41,222 nt of DNA, taken from sequence record NC_105863.1; one strand, given 5' to 3'. The notes under the pieces are model-generated. The model was not told the DNA's origin. It saw only the letters and a list, made by a program, of their open reading frames with translations, and made no database searches. Shown one piece after another: positions 20,875-29,391 of this stretch. The position numbers were made by a program, and so were the translations under genes. The DNA comes from a phage. The stretch's first letter is position 1. The number at the start of each line of letters is the position of its first letter.

Positions 20875-23829
20875 ATGTCAAGCGGATGCGGTGACGTTTT
20901 AAGCCTGGCGGATTTACAAACCGCCAAGAAACATCAGATTTTCGAGGCCGAGGTTATCACTGGCAAATCCGGCGGTGTCGCCGGTGGTGCCGATATTGAT
21001 TACGCGACAAATCAGGTTACTGGACAGACCCAGAAGACGTTACCTGCCGTGTTGCGTGATGCTGGTTTTAAACTGGCAGATTTTGATTTCACGTCAGGCG
21101 GTACACTATCCGCTAACGACCGAAACACCGCAGTTTTGTGGCCGTCGTCCTCTGGCGGTGACGGGGATTGGTACTATTGGTTGGGTGCTCTACCAAAAAT
21201 TATCCCAGCGTCATCCTCCCCGCAGTCCACCGGTGGCGTGGCAGATGGGGCGTGGCAGCCTGTCGGGTCGGTCATACTGCGGCAGCAAATATCTGATGTA
21301 AACGGTGCAATTCTGTACCCAGATTTACATGTGGCGCGATGGAAGGACGAATACGACCCGCGCGCATGGGGCGCCGTGGGCGACGGCGTAACTGATGATA
21401 CTCAATCTATTTTTAATGTATTAGCAGCTTCCCCCAACAATTGGATTATAGACGGCAGGGGTTTGACTTATAAAGTTTCCCAATTACCTGACATTAGTAA
21501 ATTTAAGAATGCTGCATTCGTTTACGAGCGCGTAGCCGGGCAACCGCTTACTTATGTAGCTGATGGCTTCTTTAACGGCTCACTAACTAAGGTGACGGAT
21601 ACCCCGTTCTACAACGCATGGACGCAGGATAAAACTTTCGTCTACGACCATGTTATTTACGCCCCGTTTATGGCGGGCGAACGACATGGTGTTCAAAACT
21701 TACATGTAGCTTGGGTTCGCTCTGGAGACGACGGGCAGACTTGGTCAATGCCTGAGTGGTTGACTCCAATCCATGCTGACTATAATGCTAGTGTTTCTAC
21801 GAACAGAGTTAACTACCACTGCATGAGCATGGGTACGTGCGGCAACCGATTATATGCAGTTATAGAAACCCGCTACTTATCTAATATGCGGATGAAGAAG
21901 GCAGAACTTTGGTCACGCCCAATGCCGTATTTTAGACACCCAACCGGCGGAATAACTATTAGTTCTGGCTCCACTACTGCTACCATTGTTATAGAAAATC
22001 ATGGCCTAAAAGCAGGAGATGCGGTTAACTTCTCTAATACATCGGCAACTGGCGTATCGGGTAATATGACGGTTGCGTCTATAATTAACCGAAATACGTT
22101 CACTGTTACGCTCTCAAGCCCTGCGAGTTCCACCATAAACAATGCGGGTGTTACCTGGAACTTCGCAACGCGATTCTGGGACAGCCCGTGGGAAATTACC
22201 GAATTGCCGGGGGTAGCATACTCCACTAACGCTGATTTGTGTGTCACGGAGACACATAGTTTTGCGGTTATAGATGATACTAACTACACTATCGCTGTCG
22301 GCTATCACAACGGCGATGTGTCCCCTCGGCGTCTCGGCGTCTTGTATTTTAGTAACGTGTATGACAATCCAGGCGTATTCGTTCGTCGCACTGTCGCTCA
22401 GGCATACGCTGATAACGCTTCTGAGCCGTGCGTGAAAAGTTATGGAGGTGTGCTCTACCTTACCACACGCGGCACATTACCTACTTCCCCTGGCTCTACA
22501 CTGGCGATGAGCACCGATTCAGGGCAAAACTGGAGCTACTTGCGATTTCCGAACAATGTACATCACTCCAATCTTCCGTTCGCTAAAGTAGGTGACTATC
22601 TCTACATCTTTGGTACAGAACGTGCCTTCGGCGAGTGGGAAGGTGGCGAGCAAGACAGCCGCTATGAAGGTTCGTATCCACGGACCTTTATGTGCAAAGT
22701 TAATGTGTCGTCATGGCCCTCATCTTTAGATGATGTTCAGTGGTTTAATATTACCGACCAAATATACCAGGGTCATATCGTTAACACTGCTGTCGGCGTC
22801 GGCTCGGTCTGTGTTAAAGATGGCTGGTTGTACTATATCTTTGGTGGGGAAGACTTCTTCTCTCCCTGGAGCATCGGGGATAACAGTGCGAAGTTATGGT
22901 ACAAGCATGATGGGCATCCGGCTGACTTATATAGCTACCGGATAAAGATTGAAGGCCACCCGTATGTGTCACGTGATTTCAAATACGGAGCAACTCCTAA
23001 CCGTACACTACCTGTCGCAATGGGTGTAGATGGTGTCCGTCATGTAGAAGCACCTTTGACGTTTGACAATGATATAAGCGTGTACTCCCTGCGTGTAACG
23101 GGGTTGGAATACGATGGCACACAACAGTCTGCCGTGCGTGCACGGTTTGATGGTGATTACGGGCTGATTTCAAAAACAGTCCCGACTAAAACTCCATCGG
23201 GTCAACGACTGATTGTTAGTGGCGGTGATGGCGCATCCAGTTCCGACGGTGCATTGCTGCAACTGTACGGGTCGAACCATGCAACGCCTAACAGGGCTAT
23301 TATGTATGCGTCAGGAGGCTTCTACTCATACGACAATTTCCTTCCTTACTTAGACTCGCAAGTGTCTTTAGGTTCGGCAGGTAATAGGTGGACTACGGTG
23401 TACGCGACCACCGGTACGATAAACACGTCTGATGGTACACTTAAGACGAATAAAGAGGAAATTGAGGGACAACTCCTTACCGCATGGGAGGATATACATG
23501 TAATATCTTTTAAGTGGCTTGAAAGCCTAGCAATCAAGGGTGACACTGCAAGGATACACTTCGGTGTGATAGCCCAAGATGTGCGAGACATCTTGGTCAA
23601 CCATGGGCTTATGGAGAAAGATTCTACCGATTGTAAATATGCTTTCTTGTGCTACGACCCAATTGAAGCTGCGTATGATATTGATGAAGATGGCCAGACT
23701 GTACAAGTATCCCCTCCCGGCGGCAGATGGGGGGTTAGGGCGGACCAGATGTTCTTCATAGAGATTGCCTATCAGCGTAAGAAGATGCGCGAGTTCGAGA
23801 AGAGGCTGGCAGCACTAGAAGATAAATAA
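20875..23829 (+). CDS. tailspike / capsule depolymerase with C-terminal intramolecular chaperone (peptidase S74-like) domain
   Basis: 984 aa; two Asp-box (BNR) motifs SGDDGQTW and STDSGQNW; GAVGDGVTDDT motif typical of beta-helix glycosidases; C-terminal segment from about 23428 (TSDGTLKTNKEEIEGQ..) resembles the auto-cleaving chaperone of endosialidase/tail-fibre proteins. Confidence 0.75.
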   Translation: MSSGCGDVLSLADLQTAKKHQIFEAEVITGKSGGVAGGADIDYATNQVTGQTQKTLPAVLRDAGFKLADFDFTSGGTLSANDRNTAVLWPSSSGGDGDWYYWLGALPKIIPASSSPQSTGGVADGAWQPVGSVILRQQISDVNGAILYPDLHVARWKDEYDPRAWGAVGDGVTDDTQSIFNVLAASPNNWIIDGRGLTYKVSQLPDISKFKNAAFVYERVAGQPLTYVADGFFNGSLTKVTDTPFYNAWTQDKTFVYDHVIYAPFMAGERHGVQNLHVAWVRSGDDGQTWSMPEWLTPIHADYNASVSTNRVNYHCMSMGTCGNRLYAVIETRYLSNMRMKKAELWSRPMPYFRHPTGGITISSGSTTATIVIENHGLKAGDAVNFSNTSATGVSGNMTVASIINRNTFTVTLSSPASSTINNAGVTWNFATRFWDSPWEITELPGVAYSTNADLCVTETHSFAVIDDTNYTIAVGYHNGDVSPRRLGVLYFSNVYDNPGVFVRRTVAQAYADNASEPCVKSYGGVLYLTTRGTLPTSPGSTLAMSTDSGQNWSYLRFPNNVHHSNLPFAKVGDYLYIFGTERAFGEWEGGEQDSRYEGSYPRTFMCKVNVSSWPSSLDDVQWFNITDQIYQGHIVNTAVGVGSVCVKDGWLYYIFGGEDFFSPWSIGDNSAKLWYKHDGHPADLYSYRIKIEGHPYVSRDFKYGATPNRTLPVAMGVDGVRHVEAPLTFDNDISVYSLRVTGLEYDGTQQSAVRARFDGDYGLISKTVPTKTPSGQRLIVSGGDGASSSDGALLQLYGSNHATPNRAIMYASGGFYSYDNFLPYLDSQVSLGSAGNRWTTVYATTGTINTSDGTLKTNKEEIEGQLLTAWEDIHVISFKWLESLAIKGDTARIHFGVIAQDVRDILVNHGLMEKDSTDCKYAFLCYDPIEAAYDIDEDGQTVQVSPPGGRWGVRADQMFFIEIAYQRKKMREFEKRLAALEDK

Positions 23830-23857: not shown

Positions 23858-23995
23858 CTACTCTTCGGATAACTTTTCCAGTACAAACGCCAGTTGCGCA
23901 TTAGCGGCGTCTCTTTGCTGCCGTAGTCGCAGAACCTCTTCTTCTAGTTCCTTGATACGTTTTTGCAATGCTGGAATCGGGGCTATGATGTTCAT
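23858..23995 (-). CDS. small coiled-coil protein (45 aa), translationally coupled to helicase
   Basis: ATG at 23995 overlaps helicase TGA (ATGA); sequence MNIIAPIPALQKRIKELEEEVLRLRQQRDAANAQLAFVLEKLSEE; below ORF-track cutoff. Confidence 0.3.
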   Translation of the reverse strand: MNIIAPIPALQKRIKELEEEVLRLRQQRDAANAQLAFVLEKLSEE

Positions 23996-25416
23996 TTCTT
24001 ACCTCTTCTCTTCATATAATTAAGCAATTCTTCCTGGACCGATTTCTTCTCGTCTGTACGCGCGGCAACAACCTCGTCAAGAGTGTCTTTAGCGACTATG
24101 TGATAAAGGAACACCGGGCGCTCGTGGCCAGCCTGTTTCTGGCGGACCGGGCCTATACGCTCGACAACCTGCAAATAGTGCTCAAGATTCCAGCCTTGCG
24201 AAATAAACGCCAGATGATGCCCGCCGTCCTGTAAATTCAAACCATGCCCGGCTGACGCCGGGTGCACGCATAAGATTTCGATTTCGCCACGGTTCCACGC
24301 TTCCATCTGCTTATTACCCTTCGCACCTTTGGCGAACGCCTGCGCCTGCGGGAATCGCTTAAGGATGCGCTCCAGTTCATGCTTAAACTGATAAGCCACA
24401 AGTAACGGTGCGCCCTGTAACTCCTCGACAATGGACTCGAGCGCATCCAGTTTCGTATCGTGCACTTTCTCCCAGTCTTTCGTTGCCTCACCGTCCGGCC
24501 CTGACACATATACGGCGCCGGATGCAATCTGCAAACACTTTGACGTCTTCGCTGCGGCGTTAGCCGCTTCTACTTCCCCGCTCTCCAGTTCCGCGAATAA
24601 CTTCTCCTCCATATCGATGTACGCCTGGCGTGCTTTCTTCGGCAGGTCTATTTCAACCGGTACGATAATCGGCGCTTCGCAACCGAACCACTCGGCAGCG
24701 TCAATCGTGAGACTAATGTCTTTCATCTTCTGATGAATTTCATTATCTGCACCCGGTCGCGCATGATACTCTCGCGCCATCGCCGACTTACCTTTCTGGA
24801 CAGAGTTAAACCATCGGTCGGTGAATGCCGTGTATGAAGAACCGAGGCGCTCGCCTGCGTCGATAAACCAGTTCTGACCCCACAAGTCTTTGAGGCCGTT
24901 CGGTGACGGCGTACCAGTAAGGTTGATGAAACGCTTAACCTTACCGAATGCCACTTTACTAAGCGCCTTTGCCCGCTTGCTGCCACCTGAACGGCTACGG
25001 AAAGATTTCAGTTTCGTGCTTTCATCGGCAACAATAACCGTAAAAGGCCAGTCGTCTTTGCCGTAGTAGTCAATCAGCCACTCGATAACTTCGTAGTTAG
25101 TGCACACCACGTTAGCATCTGACTCCAGCGCCGCGATGCGGCGTTTCTCTGAACCTGTCGCATCTACGACACGCAGGCACGGGAATCGCCATTTCTCTTG
25201 TTCTGCCGGCCATGTACCTGATGCAACGCGCAACGGGGCGAGAATTAACACGCGGTCGTCGTCCGTAAGTTGCCCGTTGCGGAACAGGCGGTTTAAAGTC
25301 CACAGGACGCTGCCAGTCTTCCCGGCGCCCATGCTCGCCCAAATATTACAGCGATGGTGCTGCAACATGAACGAGGTCATGAGCTTCTGGTATTCGCGCC
25401 TTTGAAACTTACTCAT
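23992..25416 (-). CDS. SNF2-family (superfamily 2) DNA helicase
   Basis: Walker A ASMGAGKTGS, DExx-like IVADESTKLK, C-terminal helicase motif VI-like QVVERIGPVRQ; 474 aa. Confidence 0.75.
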   Translation of the reverse strand: MSKFQRREYQKLMTSFMLQHHRCNIWASMGAGKTGSVLWTLNRLFRNGQLTDDDRVLILAPLRVASGTWPAEQEKWRFPCLRVVDATGSEKRRIAALESDANVVCTNYEVIEWLIDYYGKDDWPFTVIVADESTKLKSFRSRSGGSKRAKALSKVAFGKVKRFINLTGTPSPNGLKDLWGQNWFIDAGERLGSSYTAFTDRWFNSVQKGKSAMAREYHARPGADNEIHQKMKDISLTIDAAEWFGCEAPIIVPVEIDLPKKARQAYIDMEEKLFAELESGEVEAANAAAKTSKCLQIASGAVYVSGPDGEATKDWEKVHDTKLDALESIVEELQGAPLLVAYQFKHELERILKRFPQAQAFAKGAKGNKQMEAWNRGEIEILCVHPASAGHGLNLQDGGHHLAFISQGWNLEHYLQVVERIGPVRQKQAGHERPVFLYHIVAKDTLDEVVAARTDEKKSVQEELLNYMKRRGKK

Positions 25417-26233
25417 TTACGGCCCCCATAAACGCCTTTATAAATTCGGCGGCTACTTGCGGGACGATGGCATTGCCGTAACCGCGCAATCGTCCCACTC
25501 TGGCGGGTATCCCATTAGCCAGCGGGAATGCGCCGGGTTCAACCGGCCGGAACTTTCCATCACGGCATCCGAGCCAGTCAGCATCTGACCAGAAGCCGTG
25601 GTGCGGGTTGGTTGACTCGCTTTCAATCCCTGCTCTGTTGAGTAGTCCAGCCTGTCGAATGTTCTGTCCCTCCCGTCCGTGCGAATCACTGTCTCTCCAC
25701 TCCCTCTGAAGTCGTTCGCTGTCGGTGTAGGCCAGTTCGTGCGCGCCAAAGAAGAGTCGTTCTCTTTTGTGCGGTGCGCCGACGCTACAAGCTGGGAGTA
25801 CAGCAAACCCGACGGCGTAGTCTTCTCCTTCCAGGTGAGCTTGTAAATCGCACATCCACGATTTTGCAATTGCTGCCGCAACCTGCTCCCCAAAGATGAC
25901 TGGAGGGCGGCACTCGCTGATGAGGTCGAGGAAGACCGGCGCGAGGTGTCTCGGGTCGAACTGTCCGAGTTGCTTTCCCGCCGCGCTAAACGGTTGGCAA
26001 GGCGGGCTTCCCGTCCAGAGAGGCGCATCTTCCGGAACTCCCGCAAGTCTGAGCGCGAGAGGCCAGCCGCCGATACCCGCGAAAAAATGACACTGGGTGA
26101 ACCCGTCAAGGTCTTCTGGCTTAACTTCGGTAATGCTTCTTTCATCTACAACTCCAAAAGGTATGTGACCCTGTTTTATCAACTCACGCAGCCACGCGGC
26201 TGCGCCTTTATCCCATTCATTGTAATAGTTCAT
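25409..26233 (-). CDS. DNA (cytosine-5)-methyltransferase-like protein, compact
   Basis: Motif I FFAGIGG, motif IV PC dipeptide in [16 protein letters not shown]-like FGEQV, motif VIII-like KRERLFF, C-terminal [11 protein letters not shown]; only 274 aa so the variable/target-recognition region is unusually short. Confidence 0.65.
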
Positions 26234-26421
26234 TTCGCCACCAGAACTAACTCTTTACGCCCGAACGCCGTAACGTTACCGGTTACATCTTCGATAACCA
26301 GTTTACCGTTCGACTCGACGAACACCGTATCAACGGCAACAGGTTGACGTGTCTTAACGTTGAAAATCATGTCACCCGGTACGATGTCACGTGCTGGTTT
26401 GCGGTCATATTCGTGTTTCAT
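26230..26421 (-). CDS. hypothetical protein (63 aa)
   Basis: ORF immediately downstream of minus-strand promoter 26455-26483; ATGA overlap with methyltransferase gene. Confidence 0.4.
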   Translation of the reverse strand: MKHEYDRKPARDIVPGDMIFNVKTRQPVAVDTVFVESNGKLVIEDVTGNVTAFGRKELVLVAK

Positions 26422-26451: not shown

Positions 26452-26736
26452 CTAACTATAATAGTTCGCTATTAGGTCGTCAACCTGTTTAAACGAACCA
26501 ACGACAAAAACATTCGCACCACGTTTACGCATACGCTCGTGCTCACGTAACTGGTGTGGGTCTGGCTTCGTGTTTTCGTCTTTCTTAACCTCGACGAACA
26601 AGACGATGCCGCCGGGTAGAATTACCAGCAGGTCGGGAGCGCCGGAGCGCCCCTCATAGGAAAGTTTACGAACGAGGCCGCCGATAGCCTCGAATCGCTC
26701 TTTTGCGTATTTCTGGATGCGCCCCTCTTTAGTCAT
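26452..26736 (-). CDS. VRR-NUC domain nuclease
   Basis: 94 aa; PD-(D/E)XK-type core GAPDLLVILPGGIVLFVEVKKDE characteristic of VRR-NUC proteins. Confidence 0.65.
   Translation of the reverse strand: MTKEGRIQKYAKERFEAIGGLVRKLSYEGRSGAPDLLVILPGGIVLFVEVKKDENTKPDPHQLREHERMRKRGANVFVVGSFKQVDDLIANYYS
26455..26483 (-). promoter_or_regulatory. sigma70-like promoter (TTGACG -17- TATAGT) with palindromic AACTATAATAGTT core
   Basis: Minus strand reads TTGACG, 17 bp, TATAGT; plus-strand sequence 26454-26466 is the near-perfect palindrome AACTATAATAGTT. Confidence 0.5.
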
Positions 26737-26885
26737 GGGCGCAGAATCCAGGTAATGAAAGCCCCACCTAGAACGGCGACACCGACAAACTTAAAGAACA
26801 GGCCGTAACAGAACATCGCGGCTATTCCCGCACCGAGTAACAGCGCGAGCATGGTTACTATCGTCCAAAATACAAACATTGTCAT
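26733..26885 (-). CDS. small hydrophobic membrane protein (50 aa)
   Basis: MTMFVFWTIVTMLALLLGAGIAAMFCYGLFFKFVGVAVLGGAFITWILRP; ATGA overlaps at both ends (with VRR-NUC start and preceding micro-ORF); below ORF-track cutoff. Confidence 0.35.
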   Translation of the reverse strand: MTMFVFWTIVTMLALLLGAGIAAMFCYGLFFKFVGVAVLGGAFITWILRP

Positions 26886-26971
26886 AATACGCACCCCTCA
26901 CGTTTCGTATGTTCAATACCGCAGCGCGGGCAGATTCGACAGTCTTCTTCATAAAACCAGTAAATTTTCAT
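26882..26971 (-). CDS. Cys-rich micro-protein (29 aa, possible zinc ribbon)
   Basis: MKIYWFYEEDCRICPRCGIEHTKREGCVL; CxxC-x2-C and a fourth Cys; ATGA-coupled to flanking micro-ORFs. Confidence 0.3.
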   Translation of the reverse strand: MKIYWFYEEDCRICPRCGIEHTKREGCVL

Positions 26972-27099
26972 TCCAGCACCCACAGATAAATTGCGATGAA
27001 CATGCCCAATATGGCAACCATCATGCCGTATTGACCCTCGTGACAGTAAACACCGGCGGCGAATCCAGCCAGTACCGCGATAATCAGTTTACTTGGCAT
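26968..27099 (-). CDS. small hydrophobic membrane protein (43 aa)
   Basis: MPSKLIIAVLAGFAAGVYCHEGQYGMMVAILGMFIAIYLWVLE; start overlaps 3' end of polymerase gene in another frame. Confidence 0.35.
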   Translation of the reverse strand: MPSKLIIAVLAGFAAGVYCHEGQYGMMVAILGMFIAIYLWVLE

Positions 27100-29269
27100 A
27101 ACGCTTCATCTCCGCGCCTTCTGCTACAAGAGGGAACCCCTCGGCCCACTCTGGTAATTCGCACATCAATCGTTCCAGTTCTGCGACATTGTATTCTGGT
27201 AAATCTGGTGTCTCGCAGATAATCTCATCGTGAACATGAAGCACAATCGGGTAGCCGTTTGCTTCGACGTTCAGCAGTGCATTAGCCAGCAAATCACGGC
27301 ACAGCGCCTGAGTGCAGTTTTCCACCAGTTTACCAGAGTAGGTGTACTGGAAGCCCCACTGACGGGTTAACTGGTTTTCGCCCTGGTACTTGATGCGCAC
27401 GTTGGTAGACACCCTCCCGTCTTCGTCTGTCTCTTTCGACACGCTTAGCCCAACACCCGGATAAGACATAACGCGGCCCGACGGCAACGTCATCCGCAAC
27501 CACCAACCGGCGACTTTGTTGCCGTTGTTGTCCGTTTCTACGTTGCGCGAAAACTTAACTCCCCGCGGCCCTGCGGTGAACTCTTTGCCCGGATTGCGGA
27601 TAGCTGCCATAGCTGCGTCTTCAATATCCCGCCAGAAAGCTACTGTTTCCGGGTGTGACTCACGCCACATACGCTTGATAGCGTCGCAGGTACGCCACAC
27701 TTTCTTATCAAGAATATAAGATGGTCGGTCATCATTTTCACCTGGACGTGGTGGTCGCTTGGCTTCCTGAATACGCGCCCACTCATATCCACGTGCGGTA
27801 GCAGCCCAGATGTGGTCAGGGAAAGTCCCGTCCATTGTTTTTGCCATATCAACAAGGTCAAGGCCGAGGTTCTTGGCGAACTGTACGAATGCGCCGACAC
27901 CACCCGCGTAGCCAAGTCCAAGTTCACATGCCTTACCAATCTGGCGTAAGTCTTTACGTTCTTTCTTAATGTAATCCGGCTCCATGCCGAACATCTTGCC
28001 TGCGGTTACGCAGTAAATATCCAGCCCGGCACGGAACGTATCAAGCGCGGTTTCTTCGCCAGCCAGCCACGCCAAACCGCGGCCTTCAACGTTCGAGTAG
28101 TCGGCGACGACAAACTTATGTCCGGCTTCCGGGATAATGCAGCTGCGAACCGTAGATGCCGTTAGCTTGGCTACATCAAAACGGCGATGTGCTCGGCCCT
28201 TAAGTAATGCTGAAATACCTTTATCCAGTTCATCATCGTGATAGTACCCACGCGCCAGGTTCTGCGGCTGGAAGCCTTTACCAGCAAATCGTAACGTACG
28301 TTTAGCTCCACCATACTGGATGCAACCGCGACGGCGGTCGTCAGACGAGCGGCCTAACAGCAGCGGGTTATATTTCGTTGACGCAGTGGATGCCACCCCG
28401 AGGCGCATTTCTATAATCGTGCGGGCGTCGTCCGGTAAATCATCGTCAGCAAGCAGGTCGTTAAGCGTAGACTTCTGCGCGTTGTGGATGCGATGCGCAG
28501 GCGCCAGTTCACGCAGAATCGGCAGGAAGTCCTTACCTGTAAGCGAGCCGCCGTATTTACGTCGGGCTTCTTCCTGTAACTGTGCCTTGTGTTTCTCCAC
28601 AGCTTCAATTGCGGCTTCCGCCAGCGCAACGTCGACCTTAAACCCGCGGTCGTTAATTAACTGGTCCAGTTCCAGTACACGGTCTTCGAACTCGGAGTTA
28701 CCCCAACGCGGCAACTTATGGAACACTTCACGCATCGCGGTGATGTCGCTAACGGCGTACTTGATGAACAGCGCCCACTCATCCGGGTGCGTTTCAGCAG
28801 TGTAGCGGCGAATTTTGTAGTTCTTCGGCGTCGGTTTAGAGAAACGCTGAATAAGCGCTTTGCCTCGTTTGTCTTTCGCGTTGTCTGCAGACACGCCAAG
28901 CACTTCGCACAATGCGTCGAGTGAACCCGGCAGCGCGTGACGAAACGCCCAAATCATCGTATCAATGGTGTTGCTTACGGGAATATCAAAACCCCAGCAG
29001 TGCTTCATGATGAGTCTGTCGAACATTGAGCCGTTGTGCCACACCATCTTAATACGGCTGTTTGGTTTCACCAGACGGCGTAACGCGCGGTGCAAATCAC
29101 CCGGCATGTCGCCGCCGTTGGTGCAATCCCATACCTGTACAGGCTCGTCGTCAAAAGCATAGGTACAGATAAGCACTTCGGTAGTCTGGTGTTCGGCATA
29201 AGCGTAGGAACCGACTTTCTTTAAATCGGCTTTGGAGAATGTTTCAAAGTCCAGGTATAAATAGCTCAT
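27089..29269 (-). CDS. DNA polymerase I (family A) with 3'-5' exonuclease domain
   Basis: Exo I motif YLDFETFS; motif A-like DYSNVEGRGLA; motif C HVHDEIICE; ATG 29269 has RBS AAGGAAAAAGAA (ORF track begins at TTG 29323). Confidence 0.9.
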   Translation of the reverse strand: MSYLYLDFETFSKADLKKVGSYAYAEHQTTEVLICTYAFDDEPVQVWDCTNGGDMPGDLHRALRRLVKPNSRIKMVWHNGSMFDRLIMKHCWGFDIPVSNTIDTMIWAFRHALPGSLDALCEVLGVSADNAKDKRGKALIQRFSKPTPKNYKIRRYTAETHPDEWALFIKYAVSDITAMREVFHKLPRWGNSEFEDRVLELDQLINDRGFKVDVALAEAAIEAVEKHKAQLQEEARRKYGGSLTGKDFLPILRELAPAHRIHNAQKSTLNDLLADDDLPDDARTIIEMRLGVASTASTKYNPLLLGRSSDDRRRGCIQYGGAKRTLRFAGKGFQPQNLARGYYHDDELDKGISALLKGRAHRRFDVAKLTASTVRSCIIPEAGHKFVVADYSNVEGRGLAWLAGEETALDTFRAGLDIYCVTAGKMFGMEPDYIKKERKDLRQIGKACELGLGYAGGVGAFVQFAKNLGLDLVDMAKTMDGTFPDHIWAATARGYEWARIQEAKRPPRPGENDDRPSYILDKKVWRTCDAIKRMWRESHPETVAFWRDIEDAAMAAIRNPGKEFTAGPRGVKFSRNVETDNNGNKVAGWWLRMTLPSGRVMSYPGVGLSVSKETDEDGRVSTNVRIKYQGENQLTRQWGFQYTYSGKLVENCTQALCRDLLANALLNVEANGYPIVLHVHDEIICETPDLPEYNVAELERLMCELPEWAEGFPLVAEGAEMKRYAK

Positions 29270-29391
29270 TTCTTTTTCCTTAAATCCAGTGCCTTCGTTT
29301 TGCTGAGTCTTATTTTCATACAATCACGGCAAATCCACACATGCCTGTACCCGGCGCGGTACTCATCCGCGTACCACGGAAGTGGCTTCAT
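29266..29391 (-). CDS. micro-ORF (41 aa) translationally coupled to DNA polymerase
   Basis: MKPLPWYADEYRAGYRHVWICRDCMKIRLSKTKALDLRKKK; its TGA overlaps polymerase ATG (ATGA); below ORF-track cutoff. Confidence 0.25.
   Translation of the reverse strand: MKPLPWYADEYRAGYRHVWICRDCMKIRLSKTKALDLRKKK

Follow-up and report, generated by a model that had tools for sequence, protein, structure and literature searches.

A nested +1 reading frame within the C5-cytosine methyltransferase gene of a K1G-like phage: evidence for a probable two-chain enzyme

Background

Where does a C5-cytosine methyltransferase-like protein of only 274 amino acids (aa) hold the residues with which it recognises its target? 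The question is raised by an open reading frame (ORF) on the minus strand of sequence record NC_105863.1, a stretch of phage DNA of 41,222 nucleotides (nt) which, at its full length, is referred to below as the window. The phage is a K1G-like Kagunavirus, with a methyltransferase region that is 99.5% identical to that of Escherichia phage K1G (Kagunavirus, Guernseyvirinae). An initial annotation, made from the sequence of the window, recognised the catalytic motifs of the protein, allotted 60-70 aa of it to target recognition and took the small size to imply either a very short recognition sequence or a non-canonical role. It mentioned neither the strand on which the gene lies nor a second ORF, of 230 aa, which is contained wholly within the first in the +1 frame.

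We report a computational analysis of this locus and of its relatives in phages and bacteria. The answer that we favour, and judge to be probable, is that the locus encodes a two-chain C5-cytosine methyltransferase, made up of a catalytic chain, alpha, and a nested specificity chain, beta. Neither a short site nor a non-canonical role can be deduced from the size of alpha, because a conserved recognition-type module and the likely equivalent of methyltransferase motif IX lie in beta; the enzyme would be not a minimal methyltransferase but one half of a methyltransferase.

Results and Discussion

The catalytic chain lacks motif IX

The identification of the 274-aa ORF as a C5-cytosine methyltransferase-like catalytic chain is upheld. 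The motifs originally quoted for it are present, residues 72-168 match the Pfam family PF00145 (E 4.7e-17), the full length of the protein matches PHROG 363, 'DNA methyltransferase' (E 1e-88), and phmmer aligns M.HhaI with alpha at motifs I, IV, VI and VIII (Table 1). The EQV variant of motif VI and the HKRER variant of motif VIII are conserved in the alpha family, and motif X is placed opposite QFGNSVVINV of M.HhaI both by phmmer and by global hhalign alignment, where the score of this segment by itself is weak.

What alpha lacks is motif IX and any conserved target recognition domain (TRD), as the alignment of the family profile to M.HhaI ends at residue 172, past motif VIII. Between motif VIII and a conserved block near the C-terminus (the C-block) lies a linker of about 50 aa, rich in R, G and E in the family. 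The assignment of 60-70 aa to target recognition does not survive this comparison, as the region concerned is mostly an unconserved linker of variable length and the recognition-type module is found in the nested +1 ORF. The 120 closest homologues of alpha are all chains of the outer frame only (120/120; 264-479 aa), and the length of their linker follows the number of module insertions in beta.

It might still be argued that alpha is a self-sufficient, compact C5-methyltransferase which reads a very short or unusual target with the few residues separating motif VIII from motif X, and that the nested ORF is irrelevant or accessory. The catalytic Cys and the motifs that bind S-adenosylmethionine (AdoMet) are indeed present in alpha, and the C-block, GFWxDADWLxCRDGKxRPVEPG, is conserved and could contact DNA. 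Such an enzyme would, however, have no equivalent of motif IX and would have to recognise DNA with a stretch that is unconserved and variable in length, and the conservation, separate selection and universality of the nested frame, described below, would be left without a reason. Furthermore, alpha alone was inactive in the one enzyme of the same layout that has been studied experimentally (PMC2836561, PMC3404938). We consider a compact enzyme unlikely.

The nested frame is retained in phages and bacteria

The occurrence of the nested frame was examined in 90 phage loci, comprising those of N15, epsilon15, BcepC6B, P2-like, T4-like, Rhodobacter and other phages together with 80 metagenomic contigs from IMG/VR (46-81% identity). 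Both ORFs are intact in all 90. The nested +1 ORF is at least 222 aa long, with a median of 273 aa, against a median open stretch of 62 aa in the third frame, and in 73 of 85 loci the sequence WLMG of the nested frame lies exactly 44 nt ahead of GNA in the outer frame.

A tblastn search with the C-terminal 133 aa of beta returned 252 phage records from unrelated groups, in most of which the match lies under one annotated cytosine methylase gene. One frame carries the catalytic motifs and GNA, and the +1 frame WPTP and WLMG, in N15 gene 58, in gp22 of the Rhodobacter phage RcMcDreamy and in the P2-like phage SEN5, and the same split is seen in BcepC6B, epsilon15, the Klebsiella phage Seifer, the Xanthomonas phage PhiXhv-2, the Vibrio phage Fayden and a T4-like Krischvirus. 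When bacterial genomes were searched from the beta side, nesting was found in 74 of 80 loci, mostly of Proteobacteria, and it is also present in one Acidobacteria phage and in two environmental phages, an EBPR phage among them. Beta-type sequence matches 8,501 protein clusters formed at 50% identity. The plasmid matches, with three exceptions, lie on megaplasmids of about 2 Mb or on replicons of 27-119 kb, a size compatible with phage-plasmids, and none of the plasmid matches has an endonuclease feature under the match. The annotation of ZCEC5 suggests a fusion; two normal ORFs are present there and we have not counted it as one.

Selection acts on both frames

The variability of each codon position, computed as an entropy over 85 loci, divides the gene into five zones. 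From the start to approximately motif VI constraint falls on the outer frame only. Between FGEQV and motif VIII the constraint is of similar strength at the three positions, and the nested frame reads 'LQSSLxxRL...GSTLYKLTWKxxxTPSG'. In the third zone, the WPTP module, only the nested frame is constrained and the outer frame is the linker of variable length; in the fourth, where the outer frame reads 'GFWxDADWLxCRDGKxRPVEPGxFPLxDG', constraint is again on both frames; and in the fifth, towards the C-terminus of alpha, it is on the outer frame only. In its centre and towards its C-terminal end the nested frame is more strongly conserved than the alpha frame read from those bases, and its third positions follow a coding-type pattern. 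The first 75 codons or so of the nested frame show no amino-acid constraint of their own, the second codon position there being the most variable, and the best-supported reading is that the functional part of beta begins at about aa 75.

The two frames are also open in more loci than would be expected from permutation of synonymous codons. The outer frame is free of stops through the linker in 78 of 78 loci, where 23 would be expected when the beta codons are permuted, and the third frame in 4 of 78. Along a 76-codon stretch containing motifs I-IV the nested frame is open in 74 of 85 loci, compared with an expected 42, and the third frame in 0 of 85. Both frames are under selection.

Beta as the putative source of motif IX

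Just one segment of beta can be aligned to M.HhaI, and it sits opposite motif IX of that enzyme, 'TRKLHPRECARVMGYPDSYK', which is the right position for it. We also built a virtual chimera, in which the N-terminal part of alpha is followed by the part of beta from WPTP to motif IX and then by the C-terminal part of alpha. In local mode this chimera is collinear with residues 3-289 of M.HhaI, and in global mode motifs IX and X are placed exactly; with the beta segment reversed, as a control, the alignment ends at residue 170. The total hhalign scores of the chimera and the reversed control are similar (110.7 and 112.0, respectively), with only the extent of the alignment differing, and for that reason we count the result as qualitative only. 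That beta supplies the motif IX equivalent which alpha lacks is part of the two-chain reading that we favour.

Several observations weigh against a two-chain enzyme and should be set beside this. The pairwise match of beta to motif IX is statistically weak (E about 0.06-0.07). The conservation of beta upstream of aa 75 or so is in part a passive reflection of motifs I-IV of alpha. Beta alone has no match in Pfam or NCBIfam, and a profile search of the PDB with the beta alignment found no match. The AlphaFold2 models of both chains are poor: beta modelled alone has a mean predicted local distance difference test score (pLDDT) of 53 and alpha one of 33, the input alignment for alpha being too shallow. 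In the beta model aa 1-73 are disordered and only aa 76-122, a helix and hairpin, are modelled with confidence (pLDDT 85-89); that they are so, although their codons overlap those of motifs VI-VIII of alpha, speaks in favour of the two-chain reading. In the PHROG collection beta matches families 1008 and 31772, both of which are named 'DNA methyltransferase'.

The lack of constraint on the first 75 codons and of a Pfam or NCBIfam match are also what could be expected of a non-functional by-product of the sequence and composition of alpha, wrongly picked up by gene callers and annotators. We regard this as very improbable, given that the remainder of the nested frame is conserved better than alpha with coding-type third positions, that all 90 phage loci, the hosts of which differ widely in guanine plus cytosine content, keep the ORF intact but not the third frame, that its insertions and deletions are of whole WPTP modules, and that the motif IX-like sequence keeps its fixed offset of 44 nt.

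Two chains or one

Candidate start signals for beta are found within alpha (Table 1). In the window the ATG at 26143-26145 arises from the GAT-GAA codons of alpha (Asp30-Glu31), with a TAG in the beta frame immediately upstream. In 43 of the 85 loci the nested frame has an ATG at position PCQ-125, counted in nt upstream from the PCQ codons, and AAGGAG usually precedes this ATG by 8 nt. The box arises where the conserved Arg of 'VDERSI' is encoded by AGG, a rare codon which accounts for 32% of the codons at this Arg and for 4.1% of the other Arg codons in the same half of the gene. In a further arrangement, seen in 30 of the 85 loci, K1G-like window included, the ATG is at position PCQ-143. In other loci, for example that of N15, the ATG follows closely on motif IV and is accompanied by a GGAGG or AAGG(AG) box.

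The blocks of alpha (N-terminal), beta and alpha (C-terminal) are collinear with a canonical single-chain enzyme, which raises the question of whether one polypeptide might be made by programmed frameshifting, +1 after motif VIII and -1 back for motif X or, as a variant, by a single +1 shift to give a fusion of the N-terminal part of alpha to the C-terminal part of beta. Rare in-frame fusions do exist in the databases, for instance P0124, on a single 3.7-kb contig, and an Erwinia locus (L106). A frameshift would, though, have no need for the alpha linker to be open (78/78 loci against 23 expected), nor for beta to be open over the 75 or so codons that precede its conserved part (74/85 loci, 42 expected). 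It leaves unexplained both the stretches of about 40 codons that are constrained in both frames and the Shine-Dalgarno sequence and ATG of the beta frame. The residues at the possible point of shift vary (RLFF, RIFW, RTYF, RLWF), no dedicated scan for slippery sites having been made, and all 120 of the close alpha homologues are unfused, the fused variants being single contigs. Frameshifting is less likely than the two-chain reading and we give it little credence, less even than a compact enzyme.

The fused variants themselves deserve a brief description. Among the 147 new cluster representatives listed from the beta-side search only two, P0124 (L093:1501-2385) and P0134, have motif IV in frame, and P0134 changes frame immediately past this motif. 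P0099 is a fusion from the beta into the alpha frame, and L106 is a locus of Erwinia tracheiphila. The variants thus run either from the N-terminal part of alpha into beta or from beta into the C-terminal part of alpha, and the source in every case is a lone contig or a genome rich in pseudogenes. We did not accept P0124, P0134, P0099 and L106 as a functional single-chain form, as they are probably frameshift mutants or assembly errors; should they be real they would be informative natural fusions.

Returning to the two-chain reading, the codon-position variability, the excess of open frames, the internal Shine-Dalgarno sequence with its ATG and the lack of in-frame fusions among the close homologues together indicate, if indirectly, that alpha and beta are translated as separate chains.

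Apparent exchange of WPTP modules

Closely related Kagunavirus-type phages (P0019, P0027, P0032, P0038, P0061, P0068, P0112 and P0116 were compared) have near-identical flanks in beta and differ by whole WPTP modules, each of 30-51 aa. At least 10 types of module can be distinguished, with 1-3 per protein in the close relatives and 0-7 in the wider family, and both frames are always open despite the gain and loss of modules. These differences look like a cassette exchange of recognition modules, and perhaps each WPTP module carries a separate target specificity. The K1G enzyme looks compact because it is the minimal, one-module version.

Variants of the alpha chain

Three features of alpha and its homologues may be recorded here. 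The 479-aa homologue P0342 has an insert of about 150 aa within the C-block, between 'RPVEA' and GFPLGKEIPARVG. EBPR siphovirus 2 gp44 (L178:3-1877) carries a large outer-frame insert which ends '...DGIVVHN/CQPFS' (where '/' marks the junction), exactly at the catalytic Cys of motif IV, and which looks like an intein. Finally, aa 3-15 of alpha in the window (26189-26227, minus strand) resemble motif II of M.HhaI, 'YSNEWDKYAQE' (residues 37-47), at a weak E of about 0.02; this stretch precedes motif I in alpha, whereas motif II follows motif I in M.HhaI, which suggests that the first two motifs are permuted in the alpha family.

The locus and its neighbours

The features of the locus are collected in Table 1. 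The overlap of 8 nt with the start of the SNF2 helicase, noted at the outset, is present (ATGAGTAA, 25409..25416). It fits translational coupling of the two genes, the co-translation that had been drawn from it, and is ordinary packing in a phage operon; at its other end, the gene for alpha shares 4 nt (ATGA) between its own ATG and the stop of the upstream 63-aa ORF. The further proposal, of a modification coupled to the adjacent helicase, is unsupported. The homologues in N15, epsilon15, SEN5 and a T4-like phage have unrelated neighbours, as do the Rhodobacter, Klebsiella, Xanthomonas and Vibrio phage homologues, and a functional tie to the helicase was dropped since gene neighbours vary among phage groups.

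No restriction endonuclease partner adjoins the methyltransferase, the neighbours being the 63-aa ORF, the VRR-NUC nuclease, the DNA polymerase and the SNF2 helicase, and the phage enzyme is an orphan. The endosialidase, VRR-NUC and DNA polymerase genes around the methyltransferase are in the same order as in K1G.

Table 1. Features of the methyltransferase locus and its surroundings in the window
Feature	Position	Strand	Remarks
Alpha chain ORF (f1)	25409..26233	minus	ATG start, 274 aa; motifs I, IV, VI, VIII, linker, C-block, motif X
Alpha motif I, FFAGIGG, aa 50-56	26066..26086	minus	AdoMet binding; opposite M.HhaI FAGLGG
Alpha motif IV, PPCQPFS, aa 77-83	25985..26005	minus	Catalytic Cys79
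Alpha motif VI, FGEQV, aa 114-118	25880..25894	minus	ENV equivalent; opposite M.HhaI FMENV
Alpha motif VIII, including KRERLFF, aa 156-162	25748..25777	minus	PHKRERLFF opposite M.HhaI PQKRERIYM
Alpha linker, aa 163-212	25598..25747	minus	Unconserved, length variable among relatives, never stop-containing
Alpha C-block	25502..25597	minus	Conserved across the family
Alpha motif X region, including GYGNAIVP, aa 251-258	25427..25501	minus	
Beta chain ORF (f2)	25453..26145	minus	230 aa; +1 frame relative to alpha; wholly within alpha
Candidate beta ribosome-binding site	26143..26155	minus	GGAG 26152-26155, 6-nt spacer, ATG 26143-26145
Alternative candidate beta start, Met40	26026..26042	minus	GGGAG, 9-nt spacer, ATG 26026-26028
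Beta N-terminal part, aa 1 to about 74	25924-26145	minus	Overlaps alpha motifs I-IV; disordered by AlphaFold2
Dual-coded segment 1, beta aa 77-122 (helix and hairpin)	25780..25917	minus	Same bases as alpha from just ahead of motif VI until shortly before motif VIII
Beta 'WPTP' module, aa 138-178	25612..25734	minus	Putative target-recognition module; one copy in K1G
Dual-coded segment 2, beta aa 179-220, putative motif IX equivalent (M.HhaI RKLHPRECARVMGYPDSY)	25486..25611	minus	Bases in common with alpha C-block
SNF2-family helicase ORF, downstream	23992..25416	minus	474 aa
Upstream 63-aa ORF	26230..26421	minus	Stop overlaps the alpha ATG
K1-type endosialidase tailspike	20875-23829	plus	984 aa
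VRR-NUC nuclease (94 aa) and family A DNA polymerase (744 aa)	26452-29323	minus	

A model of the enzyme and its significance

We propose that alpha would provide the catalytic and AdoMet-binding large domain, consisting of motifs I-VIII, a stop-free spacer, the C-block and motif X, and that beta, read from the +1 frame with its own Shine-Dalgarno sequence and ATG about 30 codons into alpha, would add the small domain, consisting of the helix-hairpin, one WPTP recognition-type module and the equivalent of motif IX. The two chains would then assemble into an active enzyme that methylates the phage DNA, probably in evasion of host restriction. Anti-restriction self-methylation, which had been among the roles first put forward, would be a reasonable one for the enzyme.

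The nested layout, cited as a rare exception in the cases of M.EcoHK31I and M.AquI, is apparently normal in a very large phage family that includes the N15, epsilon15, P2-like and T4-like phages and many prophages, in the sampled records of which mostly one gene is annotated. If this is true then predictions of the methylomes and of the anti-restriction of these phages need to take in both ORFs. As a natural case of long dual coding on the same strand the locus is a clean one, with a gene of about 230 codons inside another and two doubly constrained stretches of about 40 codons, and would be useful both for studies of the evolution of overlapping genes and for the engineering of split methyltransferases.

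Comparison with known systems

The same nested pair is found as ORF31/ORF30 of K1G and at N15 gene 58, epsilon15 p22, BcepC6B g33 and SEN5_42. Both ORFs of K1G have already been annotated, in GenBank as 'C-specific methylase' and, for ORF30, 'putative Mte8-like protein', and in RefSeq both as 'DNA methyltransferase'; among the phage and plasmid records listed, only those of the K1 phages and of one Salmonella phage have more than one feature annotated under the match. For the Tunturiibacter phage Tunturi_1 it is the beta frame that GenBank annotates as 'DNA methyltransferase', leaving the catalytic frame unannotated (L176:628-1611 and 546-1637, respectively). Our searches of the literature on the nested phage gene, on 'Mte8' and on the methyltransferases of Kagunavirus gave no relevant result, and turned up no paper that reads the phage pair as a split enzyme or that deals with the generality of the arrangement.

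The C5-methyltransferases of the Bacillus phages SPR, phi3T and rho11s, studied by Trautner et al. in 1996, reportedly have recognition modules, each of about 30-50 aa, which are exchangeable and stand in tandem between the catalytic motifs and motif IX. The relatives of K1G likewise differ by whole modules, a likeness drawn from the description of the Bacillus enzymes. Each of the Bacillus enzymes, however, is one chain from one reading frame, and K1G beta has one module rather than several in tandem.

M.AquI, from Agmenellum quadruplicatum, is a two-subunit C5-methyltransferase in which the small subunit holds motifs IX and X and the two genes are essentially consecutive (PMC3404938). It resembles the phage enzyme in being a natural C5-methyltransferase which is split in the variable region and the two chains of which must assemble. 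It differs in that motif X of the phage enzyme is on the catalytic chain and in that the second phage gene is fully nested.

The closest parallel is M.EcoHK31I of E. coli HK31 (Lee, Kam & Shaw 1995). As described in PMC2836561 and PMC3404938, this enzyme consists of two polypeptides, with motifs I-VIII and X in alpha and motif IX in beta, and beta is encoded entirely within the alpha gene in another frame; the two chains, expressed separately, restore methylation in vivo, internal Met codons of beta can act as starts, and the N-terminal part of beta is important for association. Compared with this published layout, the phage pair likewise has beta nested in alpha in another frame and would likewise be a two-chain enzyme. 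Two differences stand out, the first being that EcoHK31I belongs to a restriction-modification system whereas the phage gene is an orphan in the replication module of a lytic phage. The second concerns the TRD, which the literature assigns to alpha in EcoHK31I; in the phage enzyme the recognition-type module is in beta and alpha has a junk-like linker. We put forward, as a tentative proposal that we hold with less than even confidence, that phages may re-tool their specificity by swapping 1-7 WPTP modules in a nested +1-frame recognition subunit, both frames being kept open, and that these enzymes may form a very large class, for the most part unannotated, in which EcoHK31I would be a domesticated representative whose TRD would in fact lie in beta. 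The nested architecture itself is already known from M.EcoHK31I, and the phage pair joins this known layout.

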